From IMG/VR virus record IMGVR_UViG_3300025809_000027, positions 1 to 53,720 of that record: a stretch of 53,720 nucleotides of DNA; one strand, 5' to 3'. The notes beneath the pieces are model-generated. The model did no database searches, was not told where the DNA came from, and saw nothing but the letters and a program-made list of their open reading frames with translations. The DNA is from a virus. Lineage: Duplodnaviria > Caudoviricetes. This document shows, one piece after another, positions 1 through 53,438 of the stretch. Every line of letters starts with the position of its first letter. The first letter of the stretch is position 1. The position numbers were made by a program, and so were the translations under genes.

Positions 1-48
1 AACAAAATAATATTTACATTAATTTACTAATAATCTCGTTTTATTTTG

Positions 49-56
49 TATATTTG
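49..56 (+). promoter_or_regulatory. Bacteroidetes -7 promoter element (TATATTTG) upstream of the HTH gene
   Basis: Matches TAnnTTTG 18 nt before ATG 75; also present in the second copy. Confidence 0.55.
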
Positions 57-74
57 CTTAAAATAAAGATATAA

Positions 75-344
75 ATGAGCTTATTAAGGTTAAATGAGAT
101 ATTAGATAAAGATTATACAGGCAGGGCATTGGCTAAAGAATTAGGGGTTACACCTAATACTGTGAGTAATTGGGTTAAAGGTTATTCTACGCCAAGCGGT
201 GACGACTTACTGAGAATCGCCAAAGTCCTAGACGTGGATGTAAGAGAGCTGTTCCACTCCACGAAAACAAAGGAAGCAGATGAGATTTTGAAACAAGCAA
301 TAAATGACCTGCAAGTGGTTTACTCTAAGATTAAAAAATATTGA
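75..344 (+). CDS. XRE/Cro-CI family HTH transcriptional regulator
   Basis: ALAKELGVTPNTVSNWVKG...LLRIAKVLDV is a classic HTH_3 pattern. Confidence 0.9.
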   Translation: MSLLRLNEILDKDYTGRALAKELGVTPNTVSNWVKGYSTPSGDDLLRIAKVLDVDVRELFHSTKTKEADEILKQAINDLQVVYSKIKKY

Positions 345-367
345 ATAACGTGATTAAAGAAATAACC

Positions 368-488
368 TAACGGTTTGTATATGAAATGTGCGACATTGAA
401 ATAAGAACTAACTAAATAAAAATACATTAATTATGAAATTAAAAATAGAAATCACAAAAAAGGAAAAGCATTTTTTATATACTTTGTT
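368..488. repeat. attC-like hairpin site A
   Basis: TAAC-GGTTT-GTATATGAAATGTGC ... GCATTTTTTATATAC-TTT-GTT; the loop contains ATG 433. Confidence 0.75.
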
Positions 489-648
489 ATGCTTTGTTTT
501 TTTAATATTAAACATGGCTTGCGGTATAATGATAGGTGTGGAAATATTTAAAGACACCAATAGCTTCGGATATAACGCAACCTTAGTATATACAGCTTTA
601 AGTTGCTTTTTCTATTATTATGTAATGTTTCAGCGAAATAAAGCATAA
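433..648 (+). CDS. Small two-TM membrane protein (cassette cargo)
   Basis: Two hydrophobic stretches; its stop TAA is the TAA of the TAAC in site B. Confidence 0.7.
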   Translation: MKLKIEITKKEKHFLYTLLCFVFLILNMACGIMIGVEIFKDTNSFGYNATLVYTALSCFFYYYVMFQRNKA

Positions 649-770
649 CGTTTATGGTATGGTGACGTTGCGACCTTACAGCATGGACTTAATTAATAAA
701 CATAAAACTTTGAGATATGAATAAAGACAATAAGAAAACAGAAACCGAGCAATGCACTATACCAAGTGTT
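646..770. repeat. attC-like hairpin site B
   Basis: TAAC-GTTTA-TGGTATGGTGACGTTGC ... GCAATGCACTATACCA-AGT-GTT; the loop contains ATG 717. Confidence 0.8.
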
Positions 771-998
771 AGCAGTAGTATTTCTCTATGGATGGAAGGA
801 TTCTCTGCTACAGGACAAAGACAAGGTGCAAGTATGATAGGAACTTACCAAGCGAAAAACCTTGATGATGCGGTTAAACAGTATATGGAAACCCATAAGG
901 GCGATGTTGATTGGGATAGGTTTGGCAGAGGCAGACACGCTATTTGGGCTTGTGAAATATTTGATAATGAAAAAGAAGCCCGTAAATCGTTTGGCTAA
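717..998 (+). CDS. Hypothetical protein (cassette cargo)
   Basis: 93 aa ORF; residues EQCTIPSVSSS are encoded by the right arm of site B. Confidence 0.75.
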   Translation: MNKDNKKTETEQCTIPSVSSSISLWMEGFSATGQRQGASMIGTYQAKNLDDAVKQYMETHKGDVDWDRFGRGRHAIWACEIFDNEKEARKSFG

Positions 999-1007
999 TA
1001 TTACTGC

Positions 1008-1046
1008 TAACTACCGTATATGCGTACTAAAAAGTGTCTTAACGGG
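1008..1046. other. Array-terminal half site (putative attI-like landing site)
   Basis: TAACTACCGTATA occurs four times; 1006-1046 is identical to 11596-11636. Confidence 0.6.
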
Positions 1047-1082
1047 CATATATGTCGGGATAATACAACTTTTACAGTATAT

Positions 1083-2222
1083 TTAAAAATCAGGACTCTG
1101 ATCTATAATCATCTTCCGATTCACTTCTTTAACAACAGTCGCATAACGCTTTGTCATCAATTCAGATTGATGCCCGTACAAGTCCCTCAGAGCTTCCAAA
1201 TCAATACCTGCCAAAATTTTCGCATTAGCTCCTGTATGTTTCATGGCGTATAAATTCACATTAATTCCTAAGTCTTTTTTTACCAGAGCATTCCAATTAC
1301 GATTAGAAGTATCACGCTTTAACATTCCAGAAGCAGGCAAAAACTCAATTCTATTACGCCCACGCTTTCCAGTTGGAATGCGTCCAAACAAATAAAAGTC
1401 TTCTGGATATTGACTTAAATCCATAGATTCAAACTCCTTCAGTAAATGGTGATTGATTGGAACTACTCTTTGTTTTTTACGTCCCTTCGTAATGTGAGCA
1501 GGCATTACAATAGTTTGGTTTTGAAGATCAATCATTCCCACTCTTAGCCGTGTCAACTCAACTGGTCTTATTCCTGTATGGAAAAGCGTCACCACAAATC
1601 TGTAAAATCCTAAATGTTTTTTTTGAAGGTGTTTTTTGATTCTCGTTATTTCGTTTGGAGTTGCTGGACGGTTGGCGGTGCTTTCTTGTTCTGGTAGTCT
1701 TTTGATTTTAAAACAAGGGTTGTTTTCAAGTAAATCCCACTGCATAAGCTCCGTGAAGATTGCAGACAAATACCCCAGATTCTTGTTGTAAGCTTTGCTA
1801 GACCAGTTCCTATCTTTTTTCATGCGCTCCATTACGAGCTTCACATGAAGCCGTCTAACGTCTTTAATATAAAGATTTGAAAGTCTTATGTCTTTGATGG
1901 CTTGAATTACAAAGCCTAAAGCATTACTATAATCGTGGAATGTTTTCTTTGCAATAAACTCTTTCTTTTTTTCTAAAGCGAAATTCAGAGCATCGATTAA
2001 AGTGTAATTAACTTCGGTCATGGGATTGTCGCTCGACCATCCAGAGGCTATATTTTTTTTAAAAGATTTAAGAAGTACGTTAGCGGCTGCCTGACGTTTT
2101 TTAAGGTTCTTAATCCTATTAAGGTTCCCTGTAAAGCGTCTTTGCTTCCCGTTAATTGAGAAGTAAACATACCATCTCGAAGATGATTTGCATAATTTCG
2201 GTGTTGTGATGTTTTGACTCAT
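1083..2222 (-). CDS. int: Phage tyrosine integrase 1
   Basis: TGIRPVEL (R), YAMKHTG, LYGHQS...RYA (H, Y) motifs; adjacent to an att region. Confidence 0.92.
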   Translation of the reverse strand: MSQNITTPKLCKSSSRWYVYFSINGKQRRFTGNLNRIKNLKKRQAAANVLLKSFKKNIASGWSSDNPMTEVNYTLIDALNFALEKKKEFIAKKTFHDYSNALGFVIQAIKDIRLSNLYIKDVRRLHVKLVMERMKKDRNWSSKAYNKNLGYLSAIFTELMQWDLLENNPCFKIKRLPEQESTANRPATPNEITRIKKHLQKKHLGFYRFVVTLFHTGIRPVELTRLRVGMIDLQNQTIVMPAHITKGRKKQRVVPINHHLLKEFESMDLSQYPEDFYLFGRIPTGKRGRNRIEFLPASGMLKRDTSNRNWNALVKKDLGINVNLYAMKHTGANAKILAGIDLEALRDLYGHQSELMTKRYATVVKEVNRKMIIDQSPDF

Positions 2223-2262
2223 TTAAATTAAATTAAATGCCTACAAGCGTGTCAATCATCAT

Positions 2263-2469
2263 AACCGTACATATTATGTACAGTTTGGATATAAACCCCT
2301 GATAAACAGGGGTGTATAAACCAAAGCGGAGAGTAAGGGAGTGTCTTTTTTAGAAACTCAAAAACTCAACTGATTGAATTGCAATGTTTTACATTTTGCG
2401 TTAGTATTCGTTTTTTGCTATTTTTGGCGTAATTATGTACAGTTTTTATGTACAGTTTTTATGTACCAG
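2263..2469. other. attP-like region 1: core 2326-2340 flanked by TTATGTACAGTTT arm-type repeats
   Basis: Arm repeats at 2263-2273 (inverted), 2274-2286, 2433-2445, 2446-2458 and 2459-2469 lie on both sides of a tRNA-like core. Confidence 0.75.
2326..2340 (-). other. tRNA 3'-end fragment (tRNA-Ser-like), att core; not a full tRNA
   Basis: The reverse complement TCCCTTACTCTCCGC fits a T-stem 3' strand, acceptor 3' strand and G discriminator. Confidence 0.6.
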
Positions 2470-2471
2470 AT

Positions 2472-2597
2472 TTAAACCATTTTTTTAATTAATGGAATAC
2501 CTTCTTTTAATCCACCAATGGTTATATCCAAGTCTTCAATACGACATCTTAGCTTATCGATTGCTTCGATTAACTCGTTTAATTTTTCTTCATTCAT
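2472..2597 (-). CDS. 41 aa hypothetical protein (not in the ORF track)
   Basis: MNEEKLNELIEAIDKLRCRIEDLDITIGGLKEGIPLIKKMV; preceded by the shared AAAACCCTACTTATT leader. Confidence 0.55.
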   Translation of the reverse strand: MNEEKLNELIEAIDKLRCRIEDLDITIGGLKEGIPLIKKMV

Positions 2598-2657
2598 AAT
2601 AAGTAGGGTTTTAAGGGTTTTTAATTTAGGTTTATGTAGTTATTAAATTTTTTAAGA

Positions 2658-2825
2658 TTAATCTAGCTGACTAGCAATTGCAATCAAAGATCCAATAACA
2701 GAAAGCCAACAAACTATTTGCACCCACGTACTTGTAATAGATGCTGATTTTGATGCTGATTTTAGGTAGCGATAGATTCCTTCCTGTAATTCTCTATCGG
2801 AGAGTTCGGGTATTTTCTTTGTCAT
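2658..2825 (-). CDS. 55 aa protein with a C-terminal TM helix (not in the ORF track)
   Basis: MTKKIPELSDRELQEGIYRYLKSASKSASITSTWVQIVCWLSVIGSLIAIASQLD; has the shared leader. Confidence 0.6.
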   Translation of the reverse strand: MTKKIPELSDRELQEGIYRYLKSASKSASITSTWVQIVCWLSVIGSLIAIASQLD

Positions 2826-2877
2826 AATAGTAGGTTTTAGGTTTATGGTTTAGTTTAAATAGATCGGGGCAAGATTC

Positions 2878-2906
2878 TAAAGTGGTCAAATTCGACCACT
2901 TTAAAA
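2878..2906. repeat. Near-perfect palindrome TAAAGTGGTCAAATTCGACCACTTTAAAA, copy 1
   Basis: Identical 29-mer at 12740-12768. Confidence 0.8.
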
Positions 2907-2919
2907 TCTATGTATGATA

Positions 2920-3402
2920 TTAAAGACAGTAAGTTTTATAACTAACTATTCCAGAAGACGCAATATTAATTTTTCTTGCATAAGTTTTAAAGGTAAAACT
3001 ATAGATGTTTCCATCATAAAGATTTTCTATATAAGCAAATACGCTCCTGTCATAATCATAATTAGTTATCAATTTTACAAATTCATTTTTCTTCACAATA
3101 TCAATAATACCATTTTCTATGTAATGAAACCTCCAAGACTTATCTTTTTGGCTATTTTTCTCTCGGGTGATTAATTCACCTGTATTTCCTTCTTTTGTTT
3201 TTAGGATGTTATTCCCATTGACATCTCTAAAGTAAATACCTAATGTTTTGTTGTTTAAAACGATTGTTACAATTAAAGGGTGCTTGTCTTTATTTAAGTC
3301 TAAGTAATTGCCTTCAGTTTTGTAAATATGTTGTTTTGAGTTGGTTTTTTTTTCGTCTTGATCTGTTAGACTGGTTTCAGTCCATTCGTTTAAATTAATC
3401 AT
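2920..3402 (-). CDS. Hypothetical accessory protein in the immunity region
   Basis: 160 aa ORF co-oriented with the repressor and integrase. Confidence 0.7.
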   Translation of the reverse strand: MINLNEWTETSLTDQDEKKTNSKQHIYKTEGNYLDLNKDKHPLIVTIVLNNKTLGIYFRDVNGNNILKTKEGNTGELITREKNSQKDKSWRFHYIENGIIDIVKKNEFVKLITNYDYDRSVFAYIENLYDGNIYSFTFKTYARKINIASSGIVSYKTYCL

Positions 3403-3423
3403 AATAAGTAGGTTTTAAGGGTT

Positions 3424-3801
3424 TTAAATTATAGGGATTATTAAGTTTTTGTTTTTATCTAGTCTAAGTTCCATGATGCTGAGTCGTGCTTCTTGACCTT
3501 TAATAAGTTGTTCTAAAAGCTCAACTCTTTTTAATAGTAAACTATCAATAGGCGTTTCTTTTGGTTTAACAAGCATCGTTCCTTTGCCTGTTAGAATCCA
3601 TTCATAACTGATCTCGGGGTATCTGTTTGTTATTTTTCTAGCAAGTCCTGCTGAAATTCCATTGCGACCGTTTATGACGTTATCTATCATTGTGCCACTT
3701 GTGTGTCCTATTGACATACCAAAAGCCCTTCTACTCAATTTAGCATGAGATATAATGGCTAGCATTATTTCTGGGAAACTTTTTTCTTCTTGATTTTTCA
3801 T
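3424..3801 (-). CDS. CI-like phage repressor (HTH, no S24 peptidase domain)
   Basis: HTH followed by YPEISYEWILTGKG, typical of Bacteroidetes prophage repressors; divergent from the early operon. Confidence 0.8.
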   Translation of the reverse strand: MKNQEEKSFPEIMLAIISHAKLSRRAFGMSIGHTSGTMIDNVINGRNGISAGLARKITNRYPEISYEWILTGKGTMLVKPKETPIDSLLLKRVELLEQLIKGQEARLSIMELRLDKNKNLIIPII

Positions 3802-3957: not shown

Positions 3958-4290
3958 ATGAAAACCGAGACCTACAATAAAATTTTAGAAAAAATCAAGT
4001 GCGACGAGTCAACCGAACAGTTAATCGGATTTAACGGCAGTTTAGGGAGTTATGAAATTAATTTCTATGCAGAACAAGAAAACGGATACAAGCTTCAGGT
4101 TGATTCTTTCGGATATAAATCTAAAAGCGGTTGGATTCAGCAAGAACCAACAACCGAGCAAATAGAGCTTATGGAAAAGAAAATTCAAAACGCAGTTGAC
4201 TGCATCCAAAGTGAACCAAAAGAATTAGAGTCTACAAGCCTTAGAAATCTTTACCAAGAAAACGGAGTATCACCACTAATGTTTATTTAA
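3958..4290 (+). CDS. Hypothetical early protein
   Basis: First ORF of the rightward operon. Confidence 0.7.
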   Translation: MKTETYNKILEKIKCDESTEQLIGFNGSLGSYEINFYAEQENGYKLQVDSFGYKSKSGWIQQEPTTEQIELMEKKIQNAVDCIQSEPKELESTSLRNLYQENGVSPLMFI

Positions 4291-4301
4291 AAAATTTAAC
4301 A

Positions 4302-4586
4302 ATGCCACAAATCGGAGAACCAATTACCAAAGAGCAAAAAGACCTTTTGAATAGGCTTTTAACAACCCAAGACTTAATAGACGTGTCTACAACTGTTGAT
4401 GCCAGCTACTCAACAGTCAAGAGTCTATTTTACCGCACAGCATCTGTTACGGAAGAAAACCAACAAGCCGTTTATAAAATGATTAGCCGTGCTTTTCAGA
4501 AAGCAGAAGAATCTCTAGTGTATTTCACTAAAGCAAAATCTGAATTAGAAGCTATGCTTCCAAAGGTTCAAAACAAAACAGCATAA
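4302..4586 (+). CDS. Possible Cro-like HTH protein
   Basis: Helical pattern DLIDVSTTVDASYSTVKSLF and position near the switch. Confidence 0.45.
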   Translation: MPQIGEPITKEQKDLLNRLLTTQDLIDVSTTVDASYSTVKSLFYRTASVTEENQQAVYKMISRAFQKAEESLVYFTKAKSELEAMLPKVQNKTA

Positions 4587-4595
4587 CCAAACGGT

Positions 4596-4850
4596 ATGAC
4601 CGACACCATAACCATACCGACAGAATTACTAAAAGATATAGTTGATGTAAACAATCGACTAGTCGAACATTACAACCGCCTACAAGCGTGTTCAAATCGA
4701 AGTCCCGAAGTTAAGGGGTCGGGAACTTCACTTAAGGGGGGTAAGGATAGACCAAGCCTCCCTTCTAAAAAAGTAATCCTTGAAAACAGAACTAAAAAAT
4801 ACGTAGAAAAAAAACTAAAAGAAATTCAATCTAAAAGAAATTCAATCTAA
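4596..4850 (+). CDS. Hypothetical protein
   Basis: ORF in operon; its 3' end lies within the tandem repeat. Confidence 0.6.
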   Translation: MTDTITIPTELLKDIVDVNNRLVEHYNRLQACSNRSPEVKGSGTSLKGGKDRPSLPSKKVILENRTKKYVEKKLKEIQSKRNSI

Positions 4851-4894
4851 AAGAAATTCAATCTAAAAGAAATTCAATCTAAAAGAAATTCAAT
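4815..4894 (+). repeat. Perfect tandem repeat, 5 x CTAAAAGAAATTCAAT (16 bp)
   Basis: Counted directly. Confidence 0.95.
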
Positions 4895-4920
4895 TATGAA
4901 CCCAAAAAAACCCAACAATT

Positions 4921-5346
4921 ATGAATCCAGAAATTAAACAAAAACTAGAAGAATTAACTGATTTAATATTGAAATCCACCAAAGGAGATCAAAACAATGT
5001 AGATGCTACAATCAAAGGAAATCAATACAATCAAGGTGTTACAATCGGAGGATGGCAAGACAATGTAGATGCTACAATCAAAGGAATTCAAGACAATGTA
5101 GGTGCTACAATCGAAGGAAGTCAAAACAATCAAGGTGTTACAATCGGAGGATGGCAAGACAATGTAGATGCTACAATCAAAGAAAGTCAAGACAATAGAA
5201 GCGCTACAATCAAAGGAAGTCAAAACAATCAAGGTGCTACAATCGAAGGAAAAATGATTATAGATTCCAAAACAAATTTTAAAAAAGGTATTTGGAAAGT
5301 TGAAAAAACAGGGTTGGTTGAATATGAATTAACTCCTAAAAAATAA
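4921..5346 (+). CDS. Protein with 8 x 11-aa repeats (probable beta-solenoid)
   Basis: GxQxNxxATI[KEG] repeated eight times. Confidence 0.75.
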   Translation: MNPEIKQKLEELTDLILKSTKGDQNNVDATIKGNQYNQGVTIGGWQDNVDATIKGIQDNVGATIEGSQNNQGVTIGGWQDNVDATIKESQDNRSATIKGSQNNQGATIEGKMIIDSKTNFKKGIWKVEKTGLVEYELTPKK

Positions 5347-6284: not shown

Positions 6285-7196
6285 ATGGATTTTTCAAACT
6301 ACCTGTTTCGAGCCCACATGGTTGGCAAGATTATAACCGTGCCCAAGCCACTAACCGAAAACCAAACAAAGACCTTAGAGTCTTTTAAATTAAAGGGATA
6401 CCCAAATATAACGGACAAACAAAAAGAAACCTTTGTAAGCCTTGAAAACAAGCTGATTGAAAGTAAGAAATTCAAACTTACAGATGCGAACAAAAAGACA
6501 TTATCGGGATTAGTTTACGCTACAAAATACGGTAGAAGGACTGAAATAAATTCTGATAAAATAACCAAAGGTTTGACCGTTGAAAAGGACTGTCGAGACA
6601 TTCTGTCGAGAGTTTCAAATTTGTTCTTGACTCACTCGACTGAAAGGAAAACAAATGAATGGGTGAGTGGTGCAATTGACATGGAGCCAAGCGAAGTAAT
6701 TGTAGATATAAAGTCCTCGTGGAGTTGGGAATCATACTCTAAAATACTTGAAGATAGCGCAAATGAAATCTATCTAAGACAACTAGATTCATACATGGAT
6801 TTATGGGCTAAAAAAGATTCTTTGCTTTGCCATATACTAACAGACACGCCTTTTAAATTGGTAGAAAAAGAAATAAAAAGCCTTGACTACAAGTACAACA
6901 TTCTAAACATGGAAGGTGATGTAAGAGACGAAAACATTGAAGATGTTGTAAAGGTCGTTACAAATCATATTTTTTCAAGAAAAGGTTTGGAGGAATTCTG
7001 TCAGCACTCAACCAACGTGCATATTGAATGGTTCAAGGACTTTATCGAAATCCCAGAACAGGACAGGGTTCACATGATACCACACGCTTACGACCAAGAA
7101 AGGATTGAGCAAAGAAACAAAAGCATAATCCTTTCACGAGAGTACATGAACACAGTAAAATCAATCAATAATTTTAATCCTAAATTAATCAAATAA
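6285..7196 (+). CDS. YqaJ/lambda-exo-like PD-(D/E)XK exonuclease
   Basis: KGLTVE...SGAID...IVDIKSSW...YLRQLDSYM motifs. Confidence 0.75.
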   Translation: MDFSNYLFRAHMVGKIITVPKPLTENQTKTLESFKLKGYPNITDKQKETFVSLENKLIESKKFKLTDANKKTLSGLVYATKYGRRTEINSDKITKGLTVEKDCRDILSRVSNLFLTHSTERKTNEWVSGAIDMEPSEVIVDIKSSWSWESYSKILEDSANEIYLRQLDSYMDLWAKKDSLLCHILTDTPFKLVEKEIKSLDYKYNILNMEGDVRDENIEDVVKVVTNHIFSRKGLEEFCQHSTNVHIEWFKDFIEIPEQDRVHMIPHAYDQERIEQRNKSIILSREYMNTVKSINNFNPKLIK

Positions 7197-7198
7197 CA

Positions 7199-7564
7199 AT
7201 GAAAATACAAGGCAAAGTAAAAGTAATCGGACAAGTACAAGAAATCGGATCAAAAGGATTCAAGAAACGTGAGTTAGTTATAACCGTTCCAGACGAGAAA
7301 TACCCTCAACACATTCTGGTGGAGTTTATTCAAGACAAAACAAGTCTTCTAAACGATATAATCGTTGGTCAAAACATAACCGTACACATCAACATCAACG
7401 GTCGAGAATGGATCAACCCACAAGGCGAAGCGAAGTATTTTAATGCGATTCAAGGATGGAAAATAGAAATAGACCCAAAGTCTGAGATTCCTGAAGCACC
7501 ATTTGAAGCTGCAACAGATTTGACAGTAGGCGAGCCAAACGATTTACCATTTTATAACCTATGA
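7199..7564 (+). CDS. DUF3127 family OB-fold protein (SSB-like)
   Basis: GFKKRELVI...YPQHILVEFIQDK...NINGREW...YFNAIQGWKI with an acidic DLPF tail. Confidence 0.85.
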   Translation: MKIQGKVKVIGQVQEIGSKGFKKRELVITVPDEKYPQHILVEFIQDKTSLLNDIIVGQNITVHININGREWINPQGEAKYFNAIQGWKIEIDPKSEIPEAPFEAATDLTVGEPNDLPFYNL

Positions 7565-8043
7565 AGACACTTCATTTAACTTTAAAAAAACAATGGTTCG
7601 ACATGACTAAATCAGGTATAAAAACCGAAGATTATAGAGATGTTAATAAGTATTGGTTTAAGAGACTTATTTTTAAATGGCGTGATGTGATGCTTTTTCA
7701 CGGATATAACGATCTAACTGACGAAATCGCTATATATATTATTGAAAACTCCAAGATGTATGGGTTTAAGCCTTTTAAAAGTAACATAATGACTTTGGGC
7801 TATGCAAAAAAAGGAGACAAAGAAAGGACTTTAGAATTAGAGCATAAGGGCATTGAAGTAGGGACAGGCAACCCTGAATGGGGCGCAGAGCCAAACAAGA
7901 TGTACTTTGTTATCAAGCACGGGAAAATAATAAACACGGACTTGCAAGAAGCAATTAAAAAAGCCAAACCAAATTTGGATAAAATAAAAGATGTTGACAA
8001 GCATCTTGATGAAATTAGAAACAGTAGAATAAAAACAATTTAA
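7561..8043 (+). CDS. ASCH domain protein
   Basis: TLHLTLKKQWFDMTKSGIKTEDYR is the ASCH GxKxxExR signature. Confidence 0.8.
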   Translation: MKTLHLTLKKQWFDMTKSGIKTEDYRDVNKYWFKRLIFKWRDVMLFHGYNDLTDEIAIYIIENSKMYGFKPFKSNIMTLGYAKKGDKERTLELEHKGIEVGTGNPEWGAEPNKMYFVIKHGKIINTDLQEAIKKAKPNLDKIKDVDKHLDEIRNSRIKTI

Positions 8044-8054
8044 AACCTAATCCT

Positions 8055-8378
8055 ATGCAAGCAGAAATCGACTTTACACACCAAAGAGACTTATCAAGAG
8101 GTAGGCATAATGAGAACTCAATAATTGCTCATGAACGATTAAAGCCGTTTAAAGAAACTATGAGAAAACAAGTAGAACAATGTGTAGATGGGCATAGATG
8201 TACACTGGAGATTGCTGAGATGTTAGATAAACATCTCCATAAAATAAGCGGTCGATTCACTGCTTTAAAAGCGTCAGGAGTTATCGAGCAAACGGGACGT
8301 AAAAAATATAAAGGAAGTACATATACAATATATAGTAAAGCAAACACCAGTAGATACTTGCTGTTGGGGCAGGAGTGA
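8055..8378 (+). CDS. Winged-helix DNA-binding protein
   Basis: TLEIAEML...ISGRFTALKASGVIEQTGRK. Confidence 0.65.
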   Translation: MQAEIDFTHQRDLSRGRHNENSIIAHERLKPFKETMRKQVEQCVDGHRCTLEIAEMLDKHLHKISGRFTALKASGVIEQTGRKKYKGSTYTIYSKANTSRYLLLGQE

Positions 8379-8445
8379 AAAATAGGTAAAGTTGGTTTTT
8401 TGGTCTCAAGGTACAGGTTATAGCCTCCCTGTACCGTGCCAAAAA

Positions 8446-8635
8446 TAACGTTACTTGTGTATGATTAGTAGCGAATTATTAAAACTAAAACTTATAAAAA
8501 TGAAAGAAATAAACACACAAATTATCCAAACAGGATTTACACTTGATAGATTGCACCAAGATGGCAAAATAGACAATGAAGCCTACACAATTTTAAAAAA
8601 TAGGAATAAACAAGCTATTAATTATACACGTTGTT
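8446..8635. repeat. attC-like hairpin site C (long loop)
   Basis: TAAC-GTTACTT-GTGTATGATTAGTAGC ... GCTATTAATTATACAC-GTT-GTT; the loop contains ATG 8500. Confidence 0.8.
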
Positions 8636-8799
8636 CTGAGCTTTTGATTTGCCTTGACAATGGTAATTATGAAATGCTAACAAACTATAAATTATACAAG
8701 TTAGTTTCTGAAAGTAAAGGTTATTATAATCTATATGATGATGATGGAAAATTAGTTCAAATGAGCAAAGTTCGCTTCAAAAAAGTAGTGGCAAATTAA
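8500..8799 (+). CDS. Hypothetical protein (cassette cargo); ATG 8500 preferred over GTG 8455
   Basis: A-rich leader before ATG 8500; QAINYTRCS is encoded by the hairpin arm. Confidence 0.7.
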   Translation: MKEINTQIIQTGFTLDRLHQDGKIDNEAYTILKNRNKQAINYTRCSELLICLDNGNYEMLTNYKLYKLVSESKGYYNLYDDDGKLVQMSKVRFKKVVAN

Positions 8800-8807
8800 T
8801 TACTTAG

Positions 8808-8851
8808 AACACCCGTATAAAAGCCGTTTCAATGGCGGTTTATACTAAGTT
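8808..8851. repeat. Short attC-like hairpin site D
   Basis: AAC-ACCC-GTATAAAAGCCGTT-TC-AATGGCGGTTTATAC-TAA-GTT with an extra G in the 3' arm; its reverse complement resembles site H. Confidence 0.8.
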
Positions 8852-8963
8852 ATTTTTTTAATAGAACAAAACATGAAAAAACTAAAAGTATTAATAATAT
8901 TCCTGTTTGGCGAAAGAGTCAAAAGCAAAAGAAAATTTTGGAATCCAGAAATAAAAGGAACTA

Positions 8964-9185
8964 GTGGATGATGTCTTAATAGTCCCTGAGCTTATTAAAT
9001 CATCAAAAGGCAATAGGTACTATATTTTTCGACCCAATGGACAAGAAGTAGCGATAGAGATTAAAAATAATATTCTAGACCCTCAATTCCCTCTCACTCA
9101 AATTGAAAGAGAATTTATTTACAGAAATATACAACCGTTTAAAACGAACAACCCTGAATTATTAAAGATTAAAATAAATGGCTAA
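8964..9185 (+). CDS. Hypothetical protein
   Basis: ORF overlapping the start of the replication gene. Confidence 0.55.
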   Translation: MDDVLIVPELIKSSKGNRYYIFRPNGQEVAIEIKNNILDPQFPLTQIEREFIYRNIQPFKTNNPELLKIKING

Positions 9186-9930
9186 CCGATTAACAAGTAC
9201 CGACAAATATGCAGATTCGTGGTTTATTGAATTAGAAACGATAGAGAAGCTTGTGTTTTATTACTTAATTGACCACGTAGATAATGCAGGCTTTTATGAA
9301 ATATCGATAAGACACATACAATTTCACTTAGGAATTAGTAAGGATGAAATTTTAAGGGCTATAAAGGGGCTGTGTAGGGGTTTATTAGGGGCTGATTCTG
9401 AAATTAAAAACGGAGATAAAATATTTTTAAAGAATTTCTTAAAACACCAGAAGATGCAACCTTTAAACCCTTTTAACTCTTTTCATTCCAATGCTTTAAA
9501 GTCTTTTGAGTTGAATATTGATTTTGTAAATAAACACCCTTTTATTCAAAAATTAAAGGTTTACGGTGAAAAAAAATTAGATGGAAAAGTTGTAAAAACA
9601 ATAGATACAAATTTAATTAATTACATAAATAAAAAACAGGGGCTAGAAAGCCCCTTAGTAGAAGTAGAAGTAAAAGTAGAAGTAGAAGTAAAGGATATTC
9701 CAAATAAAAAAGAGTTTTTAGAATTTGCAAAATTGAAAATTGAAAATATCGACTTGGAAGATGTGGGATTGAAATACGAAGCATGGAAATCTAGTGATTG
9801 GCATACAGGCGGTGAAAAACCTCGAAAGATTAAGAATTGGAAAACAACGCTGTTAAATACTCTGCCGCATTTAAAAAAAACAACCGTAAAAAAAACAGGA
9901 AAACTTAACGCATATAACCCGAACAAATGA
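9178..9930 (+). CDS. Phage replication initiator
   Basis: N-terminal wHTH-like region (DSWFIEL...YLIDHVDNAG), low-complexity linker, C-terminal KIKNWK motif; internal iterons; followed by a loader ATPase. Confidence 0.75.
   Translation: MANRLTSTDKYADSWFIELETIEKLVFYYLIDHVDNAGFYEISIRHIQFHLGISKDEILRAIKGLCRGLLGADSEIKNGDKIFLKNFLKHQKMQPLNPFNSFHSNALKSFELNIDFVNKHPFIQKLKVYGEKKLDGKVVKTIDTNLINYINKKQGLESPLVEVEVKVEVEVKDIPNKKEFLEFAKLKIENIDLEDVGLKYEAWKSSDWHTGGEKPRKIKNWKTTLLNTLPHLKKTTVKKTGKLNAYNPNK
9354..9655. promoter_or_regulatory. Putative replication origin iterons
   Basis: Four AGGGGCT-like repeats at an 11-bp period (9354-9393) and an inverted pair AGGGGCT-AGAA-AGCCCCT (9638-9655). Confidence 0.65.
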
Positions 9931-11276: not shown

Positions 11277-11295
11277 TAATTTTTATTGTGGGTAA

Positions 11296-11480
11296 AACGG
11301 TTTGTGTATGGGTAGGTTTTTGACTTTGAATAATGAACTAAATTGATAGATATGGTACAAGAAATAGAAATGACAAAAGAAGAGCAAATGACAATGTATA
11401 TGAAATGCTCGAAAAAAGAACTGTGTGAAATGCTGATTGAAGCAAATAGGCACTTAAAAAACTTACCTATACACGTTGTT
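11296..11480. repeat. attC-like hairpin site F (long loop)
   Basis: AAC-GGTTT-GTGTATGGGTAGGTTTTT ... AAAAACTTACCTATACAC-GTT-GTT; the loop contains ATG 11352. Confidence 0.8.
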
Positions 11481-11600
11481 ACCCAACAAAGTGAACTGGT
11501 TTGTGATTGTTTGCCAATGAGTACGCAAGTAAGCACTATAAATGGTAGATACATTTGCTGTACTTGTAATAAACCACTCTTATCACAAACTTGTGGCTAA
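11352..11600 (+). CDS. Small Cys-rich (Zn-binding?) cassette cargo protein
   Basis: CDC...CCTC; the stop TAA overlaps the terminal half site. Confidence 0.65.
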   Translation: MVQEIEMTKEEQMTMYMKCSKKELCEMLIEANRHLKNLPIHVVTQQSELVCDCLPMSTQVSTINGRYICCTCNKPLLSQTCG

Positions 11601-11636
11601 CTACCGTATATGCGTACTAAAAAGTGTCTTAACGGG
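11598..11636. other. Array-terminal half site, second copy
   Basis: Identical to 1008-1046. Confidence 0.6.
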
Positions 11637-11752
11637 ATTGTATAAGGAACGTTGCGTTTAGGAAACCAAAAATTAACGATTAGAAATAAAGAAAATTAAT
11701 ATTAACAGACCTTTGGTATAGCACAAATTAGCAATGTTTTTTATACGGTGTT
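11630..11752. repeat. attC-like hairpin site G
   Basis: TAAC-GGGATT-GTATAAGGAACGTTGC ... GCAATGTTTTTTATAC-GGT-GTT. Confidence 0.8.
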
Positions 11753-11803
11753 ACCCACTTTTTAAAAAGCCGTGCGTGAGGTACGAGGGCAAATACACAA
11801 ACT

Positions 11804-12730: not shown

Positions 12731-12739
12731 AGCAATATT

Positions 12740-12768
12740 TAAAGTGGTCAAATTCGACCACTTTAAAA
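12740..12768. repeat. Near-perfect palindrome, copy 2
   Basis: Identical to 2878-2906. Confidence 0.8.
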
Positions 12769-18331: not shown

Positions 18332-19608
18332 TTAAAACGCAGTCCGTTTACGATCCATTATACCAAACTGACAAAAGAATCATCCTCTTAACAGGAGGGC
18401 GTGGGGGTGCCAAGTCGTTTAACGCTTCCACTTTTTTAGAACGATTAACATTTGAGAAGGGTCACAAGATACTTTTTTCAAGGTTCACCTTAACTTCAGC
18501 AGAGTTATCTATTATACCAGAGTTCCAAGAAAAGATAAACCTAGAAGGAACGTCTCAATACTTCAAAACAACCAAAAAAGAAATAATAAACACAAAGTCA
18601 AACAGTGTTTTAATGTTTCGAGGTATCAACACCTCGCAAGGGAATCAGACAGCGAATCTAAAGTCCATACAAGGACTCACCACCTTTGTAGTTGATGAGG
18701 CAGAGGAATGGGTGAGCGAGGATGATTATGATAAACTAAGACTATCGATTAGAACTAAAGGGGTTCAAAACAGAATTATAATCATCATGAATCCCACCAA
18801 CTCGAATCATTGGGTTTATGAGAAGTATATCAAAAACACACATAAGATTGTGCAGGTTGATGGCGTGGACGTTCAGATTAGCACCCACCCACAAGTGGAG
18901 CACATCCACACTACTTATTTAGACAATCAAGAAAACGTTTCTAAAGACTTTTTGCAAGATATTGAAGATCTAAGGAATCAGGCAATTTCAAGGCGTAACC
19001 AAGGCACTACAGACGCTGAAAAAAAACAACTCTGGAACACTTCTAAATACGCCTTTAAGGTCGTTGGTAGGTGGGCTGACCAAGCAGAAGGGGTTATCTT
19101 CACCTATACTGAAGGAGAGTTTGACGACAGGCTTCCGTACTGTTACGGGCAAGATTTTGGGTTCAGTAATGACCCCACAACCCTTGTTAAGATAGCGGTT
19201 GACATCAAGCGAAAGAAAATGTATTGGAAGGAATATCTCCACAAAACACACATGACCACAGACCAGATTTATAGTCATAATTTAGCGATCACTGGAAAGA
19301 AGGAGTTAATAATGGCAGACGGTCACGAAGTGCGTTTGGTTTTCGAGCTTAAGAAAAGAGGTTTAAACATTATAGGCTACACCACGCCACCAAACGGCAT
19401 ACGTGAGGGCTTAATCTCAATGCAAGATTATGAGCATATAATTGACTCAGGCAGCTCGAACATTAAAGATGAATTCAATAATTATGTTTGGTCGGATAAA
19501 AAAGCGAACATTCCAATAGACGACTGGAATCACTGTATAGACGGAGGTCGTTACGCATTCAAGAAACTAACCACCAGAAAACGGGTTACAACGTATCGTC
19601 AGTATTGA
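18328..19608 (+). CDS. terL: Terminase large subunit, PBSX/SPP1-like
   Basis: GGRGGAKS, VDEAEE, MNP, DFGFSNDP, NHCIDGGRYA. Confidence 0.93.
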   Translation: MIKTQSVYDPLYQTDKRIILLTGGRGGAKSFNASTFLERLTFEKGHKILFSRFTLTSAELSIIPEFQEKINLEGTSQYFKTTKKEIINTKSNSVLMFRGINTSQGNQTANLKSIQGLTTFVVDEAEEWVSEDDYDKLRLSIRTKGVQNRIIIIMNPTNSNHWVYEKYIKNTHKIVQVDGVDVQISTHPQVEHIHTTYLDNQENVSKDFLQDIEDLRNQAISRRNQGTTDAEKKQLWNTSKYAFKVVGRWADQAEGVIFTYTEGEFDDRLPYCYGQDFGFSNDPTTLVKIAVDIKRKKMYWKEYLHKTHMTTDQIYSHNLAITGKKELIMADGHEVRLVFELKKRGLNIIGYTTPPNGIREGLISMQDYEHIIDSGSSNIKDEFNNYVWSDKKANIPIDDWNHCIDGGRYAFKKLTTRKRVTTYRQY

Positions 19609-19641
19609 CGTGCTTTTCCCGTGCTACTTACGTGCTACTTA
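19609..19641 (+). promoter_or_regulatory. 11-bp-period CGTGCT repeats (putative late activator site 1)
   Basis: CGTGCTTTTCC CGTGCTACTTA CGTGCTACTTA; also at 28242 and 40614. Confidence 0.7.
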
Positions 19642-19707
19642 AAAATGAATACTTACAAAAGGCTATATTTTTGGGTCAATTAAGTATAATTTTTAAAAAA
19701 AGATAAG

Positions 19708-28190: not shown

Positions 28191-28241
28191 AAGTAGGGTT
28201 TTAGGGCGTAAATATATAAAAAATACTTTAAACACTCCCAA

Positions 28242-28274
28242 CGTGCTTTTCCCGTGCTTTTCCCGTGCTACTTA
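28242..28274 (+). promoter_or_regulatory. 11-bp-period CGTGCT repeats (putative late activator site 2)
   Basis: CGTGCTTTTCC x2 plus CGTGCTACTTA. Confidence 0.7.
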
Positions 28275-28310
28275 AAAACATAAAAAAAGGATTCCCCTTA
28301 AATTTCAGCC

Positions 28311-39668: not shown

Positions 39669-40613
39669 ATGGCAGAAAATTTATCAAATATTGTTTATGT
39701 AGATATAAGTGATTTTAGTTGCGGTGGTGATCTTTGCGAACACAAAGAGCGAACCCTGTCATACGCTTTGTTCGTGGACATTCCACAGCAAGCAGAAACG
39801 CCTGACGAAGTTTTTAAGGAGTGTTGTTATTCGCACAAAGTGCTAGCAGACCTAACCAGTACAGAATCGTATAAAAATGATTTTTCTGGTTTTTTCCACA
39901 AACGACAAATATCCTCTGAAACTTGTGATTTTGTAATGGTGGACACGGCAACTAGTACGGAGTACGTTTTAAATGACAGCACTTACGGCACTTACAATGA
40001 TTTCAACTCAATCACAGGACTTCCAGATTTAAAAACATTCAAATTAGACTGGAAAAAAGTACTTCAAGGATTAGGTTCTGGGTCTTATAAAGTTCTAAAA
40101 AGGGTTGTTGTAGTCGGCGTAGCGGTTGATATTGAATACCTTGTTTACAATCTCTACCAGTACTCATCTTCTCTAGCGAACACCACGGCAAGGATAGACG
40201 TGACGATGGATGGTTATTTGGAAAATATTGGAGTGAATTTTGAAGGTTCAGGGTTTGAGACAAGTTTAAGAGTTTCAGGATTTTTTGGAAGACGAAACCC
40301 AAAGTTTGAAGAGGATAATATCGTGAATCGAGATTACGAAAAGAGACAAATTTCCATCAAACAAACTAATGAATACAAGTTTCAAACTAATTTCATCCCT
40401 GTATGTTTAACCTCAGAAATTTTCGACTTTCTATTGATGTCGGACGATATTCGTATTTCAGACTACAATCTAAACAACCATTCATATAGCTATAGATTCA
40501 CCCCCGTTTCAATTGAGGAAAATGGAGAGCCAGTCTATTTGCCACAAACCAGAAAAGCGCAGCTCAATGTGACGTTTTCTGATAAAGTAGTCAATAAGAT
40601 ACGACGGTCTTAA
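39669..40613 (+). CDS. Tail structural protein
   Basis: Position and composition. Confidence 0.55.
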   Translation: MAENLSNIVYVDISDFSCGGDLCEHKERTLSYALFVDIPQQAETPDEVFKECCYSHKVLADLTSTESYKNDFSGFFHKRQISSETCDFVMVDTATSTEYVLNDSTYGTYNDFNSITGLPDLKTFKLDWKKVLQGLGSGSYKVLKRVVVVGVAVDIEYLVYNLYQYSSSLANTTARIDVTMDGYLENIGVNFEGSGFETSLRVSGFFGRRNPKFEEDNIVNRDYEKRQISIKQTNEYKFQTNFIPVCLTSEIFDFLLMSDDIRISDYNLNNHSYSYRFTPVSIEENGEPVYLPQTRKAQLNVTFSDKVVNKIRRS

Positions 40614-40657
40614 TGTGCTACTACCGTGCTTTTCCCGTGCTTTTCCCGTGCTACTTA
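40614..40657 (+). promoter_or_regulatory. 11-bp-period CGTGCT repeats (putative late activator site 3)
   Basis: TGTGCTACTAC, CGTGCTTTTCC x2, CGTGCTACTTA. Confidence 0.7.
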
Positions 40658-40711
40658 AAAAGTCATTTTAGAAATTCCATATATTTTTGAATGAAATAAA
40701 ATCTAAAAAAG

Positions 40712-48000: not shown

Positions 48001-48087
48001 AATTTTCTAATTTTAATTTGAACTATTAAGTCTTTCTTAATAGTTGGGTGCTTACCTTATTCATGCGGTGAGCATTGAAACGCTCGA

Positions 48088-48132
48088 TAACAGTTGCTAA
48101 ACCGCCATTAAAACGGCGTTTAGCTTTGTGTT
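48088..48132. repeat. Short attC-like hairpin site H (opposite orientation to A-G)
   Basis: TAAC-AGTT-GCTAAACCGCCATT-AA-AACGGCGTTTAGC-TTTGT-GTT with one extra base. Confidence 0.8.
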
Positions 48133-48142
48133 GTAAATAATA

Positions 48143-49306: not shown

Positions 49307-49457
49307 AACCTTTGTTTTAAATTATATTTAAATACAAATAATATCATTATTATTAAAGCAAAAATACAAAACATTTAACACATAACAAAATAATATTTAC
49401 ATTAATTTACTAATAATCTCGTTTTATTTTGTATATTTGCTTAAAATAAAGATATAA

Positions 49458-49724
49458 ATGAGCTTATTAAGGTTAAATGAGATATTAGATAAAGATTATA
49501 CAGGCAGGGCGTTGGCTAAAGAATTAGGGGTCACGCCTAATACTGTGAGTAATTGGGTTAAAGGTAAATCAACACCAAGTGGTGACGACTTACTGAGAAT
49601 CGCCAAAGCCCTAGACGTGGATGTAAGAGATCTTTTCCATTCCACGAAAACAAAGGAAGCAGACGATATTTTGAAAAAAGCAATAAATGACTTGCAAGTC
49701 GTTTATTCTAAGATTAAAAAATAA
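49458..49724 (+). CDS. XRE-family HTH regulator, second copy
   Basis: Near-identical to 75-344. Confidence 0.9.
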   Translation: MSLLRLNEILDKDYTGRALAKELGVTPNTVSNWVKGKSTPSGDDLLRIAKALDVDVRDLFHSTKTKEADDILKKAINDLQVVYSKIKK

Positions 49725-49734
49725 AACAACTAAA

Positions 49735-50028
49735 ATGGAATTAATACACACATACAGAGGTGCTAGAGAATTAAAGCATATACGGTTTGGTTTTGATGAC
49801 GAGAAAGAATTTATAAATAGATTTAACTTATCAATTATAACTGCAAAAAAACTTTGCAACTATTTAGAAAAAAATAACAAAGTTGTAGACATGACGGAAA
49901 GCTATGACCCGCAATCTGGTTGGAGTGGCTTTAACTTCATCATAGGAGACCAAGACCTTTCTGTGAATGGTTTTTGCTTTAGTCCTGAACGGGTGGATAG
50001 TTTTTTAATAAAGAATAAAGATAACTAA
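49735..50028 (+). CDS. Hypothetical protein (ATG 49735 preferred)
   Basis: A-rich leader; avoids overlap with the HTH gene. Confidence 0.65.
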   Translation: MELIHTYRGARELKHIRFGFDDEKEFINRFNLSIITAKKLCNYLEKNNKVVDMTESYDPQSGWSGFNFIIGDQDLSVNGFCFSPERVDSFLIKNKDN

Positions 50029-50035
50029 AAAACAA

Positions 50036-50230
50036 ATGAGCATTATAACCCTAGAAGGCAAGGCGTATGAAGTAAGCGAAGCACATCTTAAAATGCTACT
50101 CGATAAACAGAAACAAATTAATGATAAGCCATACTATCACGGAAGCGATGTTGAAATGGACGGCTTTATAAATACGCTAAAGCCATCATTCAAATGCCTT
50201 GGTTATATTGAATTTGACTTTAGACTTTAA
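50036..50230 (+). CDS. Hypothetical protein
   Basis: Ends 2 nt before site J. Confidence 0.6.
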   Translation: MSIITLEGKAYEVSEAHLKMLLDKQKQINDKPYYHGSDVEMDGFINTLKPSFKCLGYIEFDFRL

Positions 50231-50232
50231 GA

Positions 50233-50291
50233 TAACGGACTTGGGTATGAATAAGCGATAGCGACCCGTAGGGTTATTTATACCCTGTGTT
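50233..50291. repeat. attC-like hairpin site J
   Basis: TAAC-GGACTT-GGGTATGAATAAGC ... GTTATTTATACCC-TGT-GTT. Confidence 0.8.
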
Positions 50292-50326
50292 AGCCATCTG
50301 GTGCGGATTTTAAATGAAATATTGAA

Positions 50327-50728
50327 ATGAAAGACTTAACTGATAAAGAATTTTTTGAAGTCCCTAATAAGGTGCAGTATATCTATATGATGGGTATGAT
50401 GAAGCAGCCCATTGGCTCAAGCACTTATGAAAAAGCTATCAAAGAACATCCTGAATACTTTCCTGATGAAGTTGAACATAGAAAAAAATGGGCTGCGATA
50501 CCGCAAGAAGTACACGATAAATACTGGGAAGAATATTGGAAGATTGAAGAAGAAGTAATGAAAGATGTATCACCAAGCAAAGGTATTATGGGTTGGATAG
50601 ATGACCAAGAAGGATATAGCGAATGGAATAAGAAATGGACTGAAGCAAACGAAAAAGCTAAACCTTTGCGTGAAGCATTACACAAAAAATTCTATTCCGA
50701 ATATGGTATTGAATGGAACGGCTGGTAG
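50327..50728 (+). CDS. Hypothetical protein (cassette cargo)
   Basis: Bounded by GTTAGC...GTGC and GCAC...GCTAAC. Confidence 0.75.
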   Translation: MKDLTDKEFFEVPNKVQYIYMMGMMKQPIGSSTYEKAIKEHPEYFPDEVEHRKKWAAIPQEVHDKYWEEYWKIEEEVMKDVSPSKGIMGWIDDQEGYSEWNKKWTEANEKAKPLREALHKKFYSEYGIEWNGW

Positions 50729-50738
50729 CACTTGTTGC

Positions 50739-50751
50739 TAACTACCGTATA
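50739..50751. other. Array-terminal half site TAACTACCGTATA, fourth copy
   Basis: Exact 13-mer at the position homologous to 1008. Confidence 0.6.
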
Positions 50752-50813
50752 TGTCAACAAAAGCCCGTATTAACGGGACTATGTGTCGGGATAACACAAC
50801 TTTTACAGCACAT

Positions 50814-50915
50814 TTAAAAATCAGGACTTTGCTCAATTATCATTTTCCGATTCACCTCTTTAACAACAGTAGCATAACGCTTTGTCATTAATTCAGATTG
50901 ATGCCCGTACAAATC
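50814..50915 (-). pseudogene. 3' remnant of an integrase-1 allele
   Basis: Encodes DLYGHQSELMTKRYATVVKEVNRKMIIEQSPDF-stop, matching 1083-1184 with mostly synonymous changes. Confidence 0.88.
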
Positions 50916-50916
50916 T

Positions 50917-52122: not shown

Positions 52123-52312
52123 TGATTTATAGAGTTAAATAACTTAAAACCAATGACTTGAAATTGTAGCGAGAGCGGGGCACGATCCCGCGACCTCCGG
52201 GTTATGAACCGCCAAAAATAGGTGCTAAAAAAATTAAATCATTGATTTACAGTCTGTTGATTTTTTACTAAATGTTAAAATAAGGCGTTTTGTATGCGGT
52301 TTTGTATGCGGT
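52074..52312. other. attP-like region 2: tRNA core flanked by TGTATGCGGT arm-type repeats
   Basis: Repeats at 52074, 52086, 52291 and 52303; CATTGATTTA on both sides of the core. Confidence 0.78.
52166..52208 (-). other. 3' half of a tRNA with CAT anticodon (tRNA-Met type), att core
   Basis: Reverse complement TTCATAA-CCCGG-AGGTC-GCGGG-ATCGTGC-CCCGC-TCTCGCT-AC; no 5' half. Confidence 0.8.
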
Positions 52313-52368
52313 CTGTTTTTTCAATAATCTATACACGTTATTTTTATGTGTAAAGAAAATTTGATAAT

Positions 52369-53406: not shown

Positions 53407-53438
53407 GATAATAAATAGGGTTTAGTTTATGGTTTAGT

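Follow-up and report, generated by a model that had tools for sequence, protein, structure and literature searches.

Integrons are known mainly from Proteobacteria. The attC sites of their cassettes are imperfect palindromes with outer R and inner L boxes, an unpaired spacer, a bulged base and a variable centre; the core consensus is RYYYAAC ... GTTRRRY, the bottom strand is the one that folds better and recombines, and a complete integron carries beside its array the gene of IntI, an integrase with an extra domain. Phage morons are not known to have a defined recombination site. For Bacteroidetes, the accessible part of the IntegronFinder 2.0 preprint lists only In0 elements and one complete integron (in Salinibacter). 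In phage genomes, including that of Polaribacter phage P12002L, attC sites and CALINs (clusters of two or more attC sites lacking an integrase, delimited by attC sites within 3 kb) have been described, and IntI1 recombined the cloned bottom strand of one P12002L site at G|TTRRRY; according to the accessible part of that report, the activity of phage attC sites is known from the E. coli assay only (PMC9892861, Front Microbiol 2023). T4-type phages contain promoter/stem-loop (PeSL) cassettes (accessible parts of PMC2839356 and PMC4122927). Here we analyse IMG/VR virus record IMGVR_UViG_3300025809_000027 (Duplodnaviria; Caudoviricetes) over its whole length of 53,720 bases, referred to below as the window (GC content 30-40%; complete according to its completeness estimate), and argue with moderate confidence that positions 8441-8857 represent a short solo attC-like site split by one integron-type cassette through an integron-type exchange.

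The first-pass annotation of this DNA had claimed that deletion of 8449-8809 (AA|C to AA|C) brings together two outer arms that pair perfectly over 9 bp, and had named a different junction in relatives devoid of the gene as the observation that would speak against it. The deletion generates exactly the sequence given there, and the predicted empty junction itself is present in two data sets. The first is the metagenome contig L029, found by scanning with the replication initiator. Its positions 4527-4633 match window positions 8342-8449 and its positions 4631-5084 match 8808-9261 (96.5% identity), with the two matches overlapping in AAC only; the order in L029 is the first stem-loop, the left arm and, directly thereafter, the hairpin and the right arm, and its sequence differs from the predicted empty string by one base (A to C at window position 8822). 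The second comes from Logan contigs of four runs, which were placed on window positions 7600-9600 (stretches without contig cover in X4-X8 were left out): a 231-letter contig of run X5, with a depth of 9.79, links 8446 and 8808, with 361 letters skipped and 3 letters ambiguous. The upstream gene of the X5 empty allele differs from that of L029, and its homology to the window starts at 8380 (at 8342 in L029). In run X8 a contig tracks the window to 8450 and then diverges, representing a third allele, and in run X4 a contig joins 8493 to 8844 with 35 foreign letters between. Taken together, the empty forms of L029 and X5 and the contigs of X8 and X4 imply at least three alleles at this point in nature. 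The cassette, present in the window (8450-8809, + strand) and absent from L029 and X5, thus corresponds to a skipped stretch of 361 nt (8449-8809 or, in X5, 8447-8807), the bounds of which can be moved by up to 3 nt in the repeated AAC (8447-8449, within which the left crossover lies, and 8808-8810, within which the right one lies). The earlier placement of the crossover at AA|C agrees with the overlap of the junctions in AAC, but the data fix the position only within these three letters.

In the empty form the left outer arm AAAAATAAC (8441-8449, + strand), which on the - strand is the tail of R' (G|TT...), directly adjoins the rest of the short solo attC-like site (8810-8857, + strand). The latter consists of an unpaired ACCC, an inner stem-loop (8815-8845, with one bulged G and a core at 8823-8836 rated as terminator-like), an unpaired TAA and the right outer arm GTTATTTTT (8849-8857), which is the exact reverse complement of 8441-8449; the boxes of the site read AAATAAC and GTTATTT. 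Complementarity of the outer arms at 9/9 positions exists only in the empty form, which folds into an outer stem of 9 bp and an inner stem of 13 bp that carries one bulge, the two being separated by a 4/3-nt internal loop (-12.5 kcal/mol, z -3.76, 0/200 shuffles as stable), the fold being equal on both strands; the right side of the filled form reaches -6.5 kcal/mol (z -1.41). A separate stem-loop (8410-8436, + strand) follows the small gene 8055-8378 directly upstream of the site; it is present in filled and empty alleles and conserved in L029, and the fold of 8400-8470 has an energy of -9.2 kcal/mol (z -2.7).

The first-pass annotation had conceded that the outer match is A/T-rich and might be due to chance. 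For the spacing of the filled form this caution is well placed, as the window contains 97 exact 9-mer inverted pairs at 300-500 nt, among which a 9-bp match is unremarkable. At the spacing of the empty form (30-70 nt) such pairs are rarer (20 in the window), and if the site grammar is assumed to dictate TAAC/GTTA, complementarity of the following 5 nt has a chance of ~0.004 with the window's own composition.

This estimate bears on the possibility that the filled form is ancestral and that a lineage residing in a bacterial chromosome as a decaying prophage or island lost the 361 nt between chance AACs in a one-off illegitimate deletion, with the 9-bp match being a coincidence of an A-tract and a terminator T-tract. 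L029 is bacterial over positions 1-3736, up to the gene of the single-stranded DNA-binding protein (SSB), with genes for a TonB-dependent receptor, GreA, a HIT protein and a histidine kinase; its phrog_625 gene (4101-4241) is reduced to 46 aa by an in-frame loss of window positions 7580-7923, and the interior of its equivalent of gene 8055-8378 is replaced. A bacterial chromosome contig with a second deletion nearby makes loss in that lineage plausible and favours loss over gain; moreover, 3-nt microhomology is common by chance (by our own estimate a 3-nt repeat is expected at an indel in ~8% of cases), as are A/T-rich arms, with AAAAA preceding 9 of 513 TAAC sites. On the other hand, the empty junction recurs in X5 with a different upstream gene, the third allele in X8 has its left flank in common up to 8450, the required coincidence is that of ~0.004, and long outer stems are found in other solo sites (11 bp in the solo-looking site of contig L110, and those of the palindromes at 11289-11494 and 11618-11764). 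On balance, a one-off deletion appears improbable.

A single-strand transposition of the IS200/IS605 kind would imply insertion 3' of TAAC of an element ending in GAAC, with no duplication. IS608 inserts 3' of a short target, and the locus resembles this geometry: the target is not duplicated, the left flank and the right end of the element each show a tetranucleotide, and hairpins are nearby. Unlike IS200/IS605 elements, however, the cassette has no subterminal hairpins of its own, the hairpin belonging to the empty site, and a Y1 (HUH) transposase (PF01797) gave no match at E<=1 in the window, so that we regard such an origin as very improbable.

Sites built like the split one recur in the window and in related contigs. 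A second copy of the short site (48079-48140, - strand) follows a 76-aa gene and is itself followed by a second hairpin; the match 48098-48141 (- strand) is 80% identical to 8799-8842, i.e. to the right junction and hairpin. Longer palindromes of the same grammar are located at 11289-11494 (+ strand; arms of ~30 bp, self-complementary outer arms, z -3.52, 0/200 shuffles as stable), enclosing the start of ORF (open reading frame) 11343-11600, at 11618-11764 (+ strand; self-complementary outer arms), upstream of an RNA ligase gene, and at 355-503 (+ strand), enclosing the start of ORF 433-648. By the grammar defined in this work, as opposed to published tools, the candidate sites are 8441-8640, 8800-8857, 11289-11494 and 11618-11764. 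In an alignment of seven short-site members, 92.2% of the cells pair as compared with 82.9% in shuffles (0/500 reach the observed value), and the outer helix contains three invariant pairs and one pair changed on both sides. The covariance model built from these seven sites found 19 matches at E<=1 in 773 kb, some of them solo-looking with long outer stems. The hairpin core with one degenerate base had no match in IMG/VR. In contigs L061 and L073 the homology begins exactly at TAAC. As a separate observation, hairpin loops with the sequence GTTTYAATG occur six times in the window versus 1.8 expected (8826, 48114(-), 48081(-), 13041(-), 18607 and 45076(-)), and many related phage contigs have this loop as well, both in their short sites and in their second hairpins. 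In L040 (positions 1-140), which is the closest IMG/VR relative, a copy of the short site and its second hairpin abut the 3' end of a convergent integrase gene; the short-site family may also be present near the phage attachment region.

The cassette contains a long attC-like palindrome of its own. Its 5' arm (8455-8472, + strand; the L' arm on the bottom strand) holds a 17-mer at 8455-8471, and its 3' arm (8613-8635, + strand; the L'' arm) comprises the 17-mer in inverted form, with G.T at two positions, and behind it the spacer GTT and the R'' GTT. The variable central part (8473-8612, + strand, 141 nt) encompasses an A-rich leader, an ATG at 8500 and the first 38 codons of a 99-aa ORF (8500-8799, + strand), the start of which thus falls within the palindrome and the reading strand of which is the attC bottom strand. 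At the 3' end of the cassette (8790-8810, + strand) the stop codon 8797-8799 is followed by TTACTTAGAAC. The 17-mer is unchanged in 15 IMG/VR contigs; with the window counted, AAC is found 3-5 nt upstream of it in 15 of the 17 viral occurrences and a complete ORF starts ~30 nt past it in 13 of the 17. In 11 of these 13 ORFs the only common stretch is AINYT(R/H)C, the proteins being otherwise ~25% identical, and the stop codon of these ORFs is followed by TTNYTTACAAC and then by either another leader or 'AC', a hairpin and GTT. The sequence AINYTRC is encoded by the 3' arm, with third codon positions invariant in the 11 cassettes, and ORF 11343-11600 contains the same inverted motif (11476-11494) in another reading frame. 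The invariance at the nucleotide level and the use of a second frame thus indicate a constraint on nucleic acid and not on protein, and since the motif is an inverted copy of the 17-mer, both can be regarded as arms of one long palindrome, the inner length of which is 132-146 nt in 11/11 cassettes. With RNA parameters the arms of the window's cassette form a 17-bp helix, and across such elements helices of 17-30 bp are formed around the start codon; the two mismatched positions of the arms read as G.T on the + strand, and the - strand would have A.C there.

Three ORFs of the window begin inside such palindromes (433-648, 8500-8799 and 11343-11600). The protein encoded by the cassette, a member of the family of small phage proteins that have AINYT(R/H)C in common, matches no Pfam family, only phrog_4927 among the PHROGs (E 0.0012) and, by protein query, no relative in IMG/VR. 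An invertible switch or shufflon was rejected as a candidate: inversion of 8473-8612 leaves no in-frame start in 11/11 cassettes, and inversion of 8654-8789 leads to a stop after 12 residues.

If cassettes are exchanged at G|TT, what follows GTT in one site is part of the next cassette and should be complementary to the stretch preceding AAC in the site that this next cassette carries. The prediction can be examined in bacterial chromosomes, where the same arms recur in arrays. Among genome records, 26 have the 17-mer unchanged, and the titles of 18 of these name Flavobacteriaceae genera; in the bacterial loci the two arms close elements of ~125 nt without ORFs, repeated in one orientation every 0.6-2 kb with the intervening ORFs all on one strand. 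By pattern search, L129 contains 7 copies, L136 contains 5, L130 contains 4 and L160 contains 11; the array-bearing chromosomes (L160 = G003:C3:419500-438777, L129, L136, L130 and L162) are from Winogradskyella and Bizionia. When, in these arrays, the 8 nt following GTT in repeat n are compared with the 8 nt preceding AAC in repeat n+1, complementarity at >=6 positions is found for 18 of 21 consecutive pairs, as against 1 of 125 non-neighbour pairs, and the mean complementarity of an array site with itself is only 2.4-4.0 of 8. All three failing pairs are in L160, where the pairing pattern caught 8 of the 11 repeats, and skipped repeats would explain the failures. In the window, 8632-8653 (+ strand), the complement of the cassette's own R'' extension, pairs with 8790-8811 over 22 nt (77%), which is the longest inverted repeat of the region. 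The first five pairs by the crossover hold, one of them as G.T; for the pair next to GTT/AAC the window has C-G, and each of the nine other cassettes kept has G-C. By arm sequence, the window's + strand is the counterpart of the arrays' bottom strand. The site that the cassette carries directly adjoins the left crossover, which is the position expected from an attC x attC exchange on the + (bottom) strand.

The arrays also point to a candidate enzyme. Ahead of the array of Winogradskyella sediminis (L160) are one ORF and the gene of a tyrosine recombinase of 401 aa, the latter in the same direction as the cassettes, and in a second genome the array is 1.5-2.6 kb from a homologous recombinase gene; the recombinases next to the arrays of these two genomes are 401-405 aa long. 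Among solved structures the nearest relative of the array recombinase is XerA, followed by a XerC-like protein and IntI4, the latter matched in two stretches. The only Rfam match in ten bacterial loci was an unrelated 6S-Flavo RNA in L138. No description of Flavobacteriaceae arrays was found in the literature searched; a search for integrons in these genera returned PMC9892861 alone, and a search for the motif strings returned two unrelated matches.

Based on these results we favour an integron-type exchange, which would proceed as follows. On the - strand, the top strand by comparison with the arrays, the filled locus would read, first, as the solo site from its R'' (8857 to 8849) through spacer, L-box hairpin and spacer to G; second, as the cassette, beginning with TT at 8809; third, as the cassette's own long attC-like site, from 8653 down to 8450 and ending with G; and fourth, as the displaced R' tail of the solo site (8448 to 8441), able to pair with the R'' at 8849-8857. 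A circular cassette would be inserted by recombination of its site with the solo site at G|TT (AA|C on the + strand), presumably in single-stranded form; in reverse, the reaction would release the cassette and restore the self-complementary site of L029 and X5. A host would probably supply the enzyme in trans, as a Xer/IntI-like tyrosine recombinase of the kind encoded beside the Flavobacteriaceae arrays. The earlier claim that an attC-like solo site had accepted the cassette is upheld as far as the attC-like character goes, by arm homology, the array signature, the position of the cassette's own site on the predicted side and self-pairing; the word 'accepted' goes too far, as excision from a filled ancestor would give the same two alleles and L029 contains a nearby deletion.

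A number of observations weigh against this explanation. With respect to the enzyme, the L160 recombinase scores just below the cut-off of NF040815 ('tyrosine recombinase/integron integrase'; 218.5 bits, cut-off 220) and well below that of TIGR02249 (integron integrase; 196.6, cut-off 265), the latter match being in two stretches with a break after model position 179; recombinase and array are adjacent in only 2 of 5 genomes, with the gene at a contig end in two more and no array within 11 kb in one. The window is without an integron integrase: with TIGR02249 (cut-off 265) its two integrases reach 48 and 46 bits, and they are only 21-25% identical to the array recombinase. With respect to the sites, DNA-parameter folds of 8441-8650 (-8.9 and -8.2 kcal/mol for the two strands, z +1.2 and +1.3) are no better than shuffles, and the 17-bp helix is obtained with RNA parameters only; the 7-nt core consensus is reduced to AAC and GTT, the bases before AAC being variable in the arrays; phage cassettes pair on average only slightly better with themselves (4.36 of 8) than in the crosswise manner (3.58 of 8), one row of this comparison (L140) being a wrong ORF; and an ORF on the bottom strand that starts inside the site is an unusual layout for a cassette. 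Further, AAC also belongs to the conserved leader before many early genes of related phages, so that breakpoints there could merely mark the edge of a conserved element. The breakpoints of the metagenome contigs are spread over 8057, 8342, 8380, 8446-8457, 8489-8493, 8608, 8635-8642, 8844 and 8868, and two phage contigs that are 98% identical (L111 4123-4761 versus L123 10075-10081) differ by a 639-nt DNA methyltransferase gene in a gene-precise indel with a 7-nt direct repeat that includes the start codon, without an AAC site.

The leader and the scattered breakpoints are what would be expected if genes were shuffled as modules through conserved regulatory linkers, as in PeSL elements. The leader and hairpins would then be a putative promoter and terminators, the likeness to attC would be a by-product of palindromic terminators, and the gene would have been added or removed by general recombination or single-strand annealing at short similar boxes (left box ...TAAC, right box ...GAAC). 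This interpretation agrees with the fixed distance of the 17-mer and the following ~30 nt from the ATG in 13 of 17 viral occurrences, with weaker leader copies before unrelated genes in several contigs, with contig breaks at many points beyond AAC, with the L111/L123 homology block, which begins before TGCACCCTAAC, at the stop codon of the preceding gene, and with the presence of exonuclease and SSB genes directly upstream in the phage; both the PeSL mechanism and mini-circles are on record in the accessible parts of PMC2839356 and PMC4122927. However, the two boxes agree at 5 of 11 bases and the homology at the crossover is 3-5 nt. Linker shuffling also leaves unexplained the complementarity of 8441-8449 and 8849-8857 (p ~0.004), the mutual pairing of the two ends of the cassette and the R'(n)/R''(n+1) rule of the bacterial arrays. 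The window has a single strong copy of the leader (plus two matches with three mismatches on the other strand; nhmmer reports one match in the window), and the leader does not fit the Bacteroidetes promoter consensus, which could not be placed on it by eye; a sigma-70 scan gave 8 sites versus a shuffle mean of 8.3. We regard shuffling through linkers as unlikely, and as a stronger competitor of the integron-type exchange than either deletion or IS200/IS605-type transposition.

The locus is situated in a region of recombination and replication genes. Upstream are the genes of an exonuclease (6285-7196) and SSB (7199-7564), followed, between SSB and the small gene 8055-8378, by the phrog_625 gene, intact in the window and in contig L003; between the cassette ORF and the replication initiator (9178-9930), which has a DnaC-like loader in the same neighbourhood, is a 73-aa ORF (8964-9185) with no relatives by protein query in IMG/VR and none in the genome contigs. 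The record contains two phage-type integrase genes, no tRNA genes and no serine recombinase (PF00239) detectable in the window; Rfam, which is without an attC model, gave no match in the window at the gathering score and none in 8380-8900 at E<=1. Few DNA matches exist among GenBank phages (Cellulophaga, Tenacibaculum and Flavobacterium phages), and the GenBank phage collection contains no close relative (top match 5% query cover).

Several other repeats of the record deserve mention. Its ends are diverged copies of each other (1-3663 versus 49384-53720; 95% identity over 1-300, 87% over 1005-1184 and 92% over 3485-3663), each with an integrase gene, and may reflect either a circular genome of ~49.4 kb with a strain variant as the assembly overlap or a real, long and diverged terminal duplication. 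A 48-nt repeat (1006-1053, 11596-11643 and 50737-50784; identities 94% and 75%) closely follows the 3' ends of the two integrase genes and is found once more behind ORF 11343-11600, and in metagenome contig L018 homology extends up to window position 10983 and is followed by this repeat and a sequence like window 1054-1087, which suggests a rearrangement point. Tandem repeats upstream of the recombination and replication genes (16 nt in 4-5 copies at 4812-4908; 33 nt in ~10 copies at 4949-5278, partly inside ORF 4921-5346) may be iterons or an origin. A motif of CGTGCTTTTCC/CGTGCTACTT units followed by AAAAA occurs in the structural-gene half (19602-19645, 28235-28278 and 40607-40661) and may be a late regulatory site, and a 31-nt palindromic sequence present twice (2875-2905 and 12738-12768; arms 90% complementary) is probably a shared terminator.

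The marine phage locus suggests that integron-like cassette exchange reaches Flavobacteriaceae phages. We speculate, with chances that we would put slightly below even, that marine Flavobacteriaceae possess a hitherto unrecognized integron-like system made of a Xer-type recombinase and ~125-nt attC-like repeats, with sites also in temperate and lytic phages, cassettes moving between chromosomal arrays and phages, phage genes adapted to start inside the site on the bottom strand, and both alleles of the window alive in the sea. If the exchange is enzyme-driven, phages of abundant marine bacteria would load and unload accessory genes at defined sites, the Flavobacteriaceae would hold a cassette reservoir that current tools may miss, and the question would be open to ordinary recombination assays in laboratory strains.

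In comparison with known systems, the locus and the arrays resemble integron cassettes and sedentary chromosomal integrons in the AAC...GTT outer boxes, the unpaired spacer, the bulged inner box and the variable centre, and in the co-oriented arrays of ORFs and sites, in which each cassette has its own R'' and pairing bases and a tyrosine recombinase is encoded at the end of the array. Unlike in integrons, the array recombinase has its nearer relative in XerA and not in IntI, stays under the IntI cut-off and is encoded in the same direction as the cassettes, the 7-nt core consensus is lost, and the recombinase is not a canonical IntI, the integrase that defines a complete integron; the host family also belongs to a phylum with almost no integrons reported in the accessible part of the IntegronFinder 2.0 preprint. 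The PeSL elements, as far as the accessible parts of the two reports describe them, are similar in that a short leader and stem-loop motifs flank small non-essential ORFs, coincide with indels between relatives and could give circles; in contrast to the homologous recombination between repeats of one genome that is described there, the crossover homology here is 3-5 nt, the motif is nearly single-copy in this genome, PeSL elements being present in many copies in the plastic regions of one genome, and the ends follow an inverted-pairing rule not predicted by homology alone. Like phage morons, the cassette is a small self-contained gene with its own leader, placed between a terminator-like stem-loop and a hairpin and absent from relatives; unlike in morons, its junctions fall in a recurring structured site.

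The closest parallel is P12002L, a phage of a Flavobacteriaceae host that, according to the accessible part of PMC9892861, likewise has attC-type palindromes by small accessory genes and no phage integron integrase. On the - strand of its genome we found AAC-spacer-arm elements at 30954, 31313, 38089, 39244 and 39709, beside methyltransferase genes; these are possible counterparts of attC1/attC2 of that paper. Relative to what that part of the report describes, the present cassette gene is on the bottom strand and starts inside its own site, natural empty and filled alleles of one site are seen, and sequence homology connects the arms with chromosomal arrays of the host family. Phage attC sites were thus already reported in 2023, and what the present locus adds to them is the natural pair of empty and filled alleles at one phage site and the sequence link to the cassette arrays of the host family.

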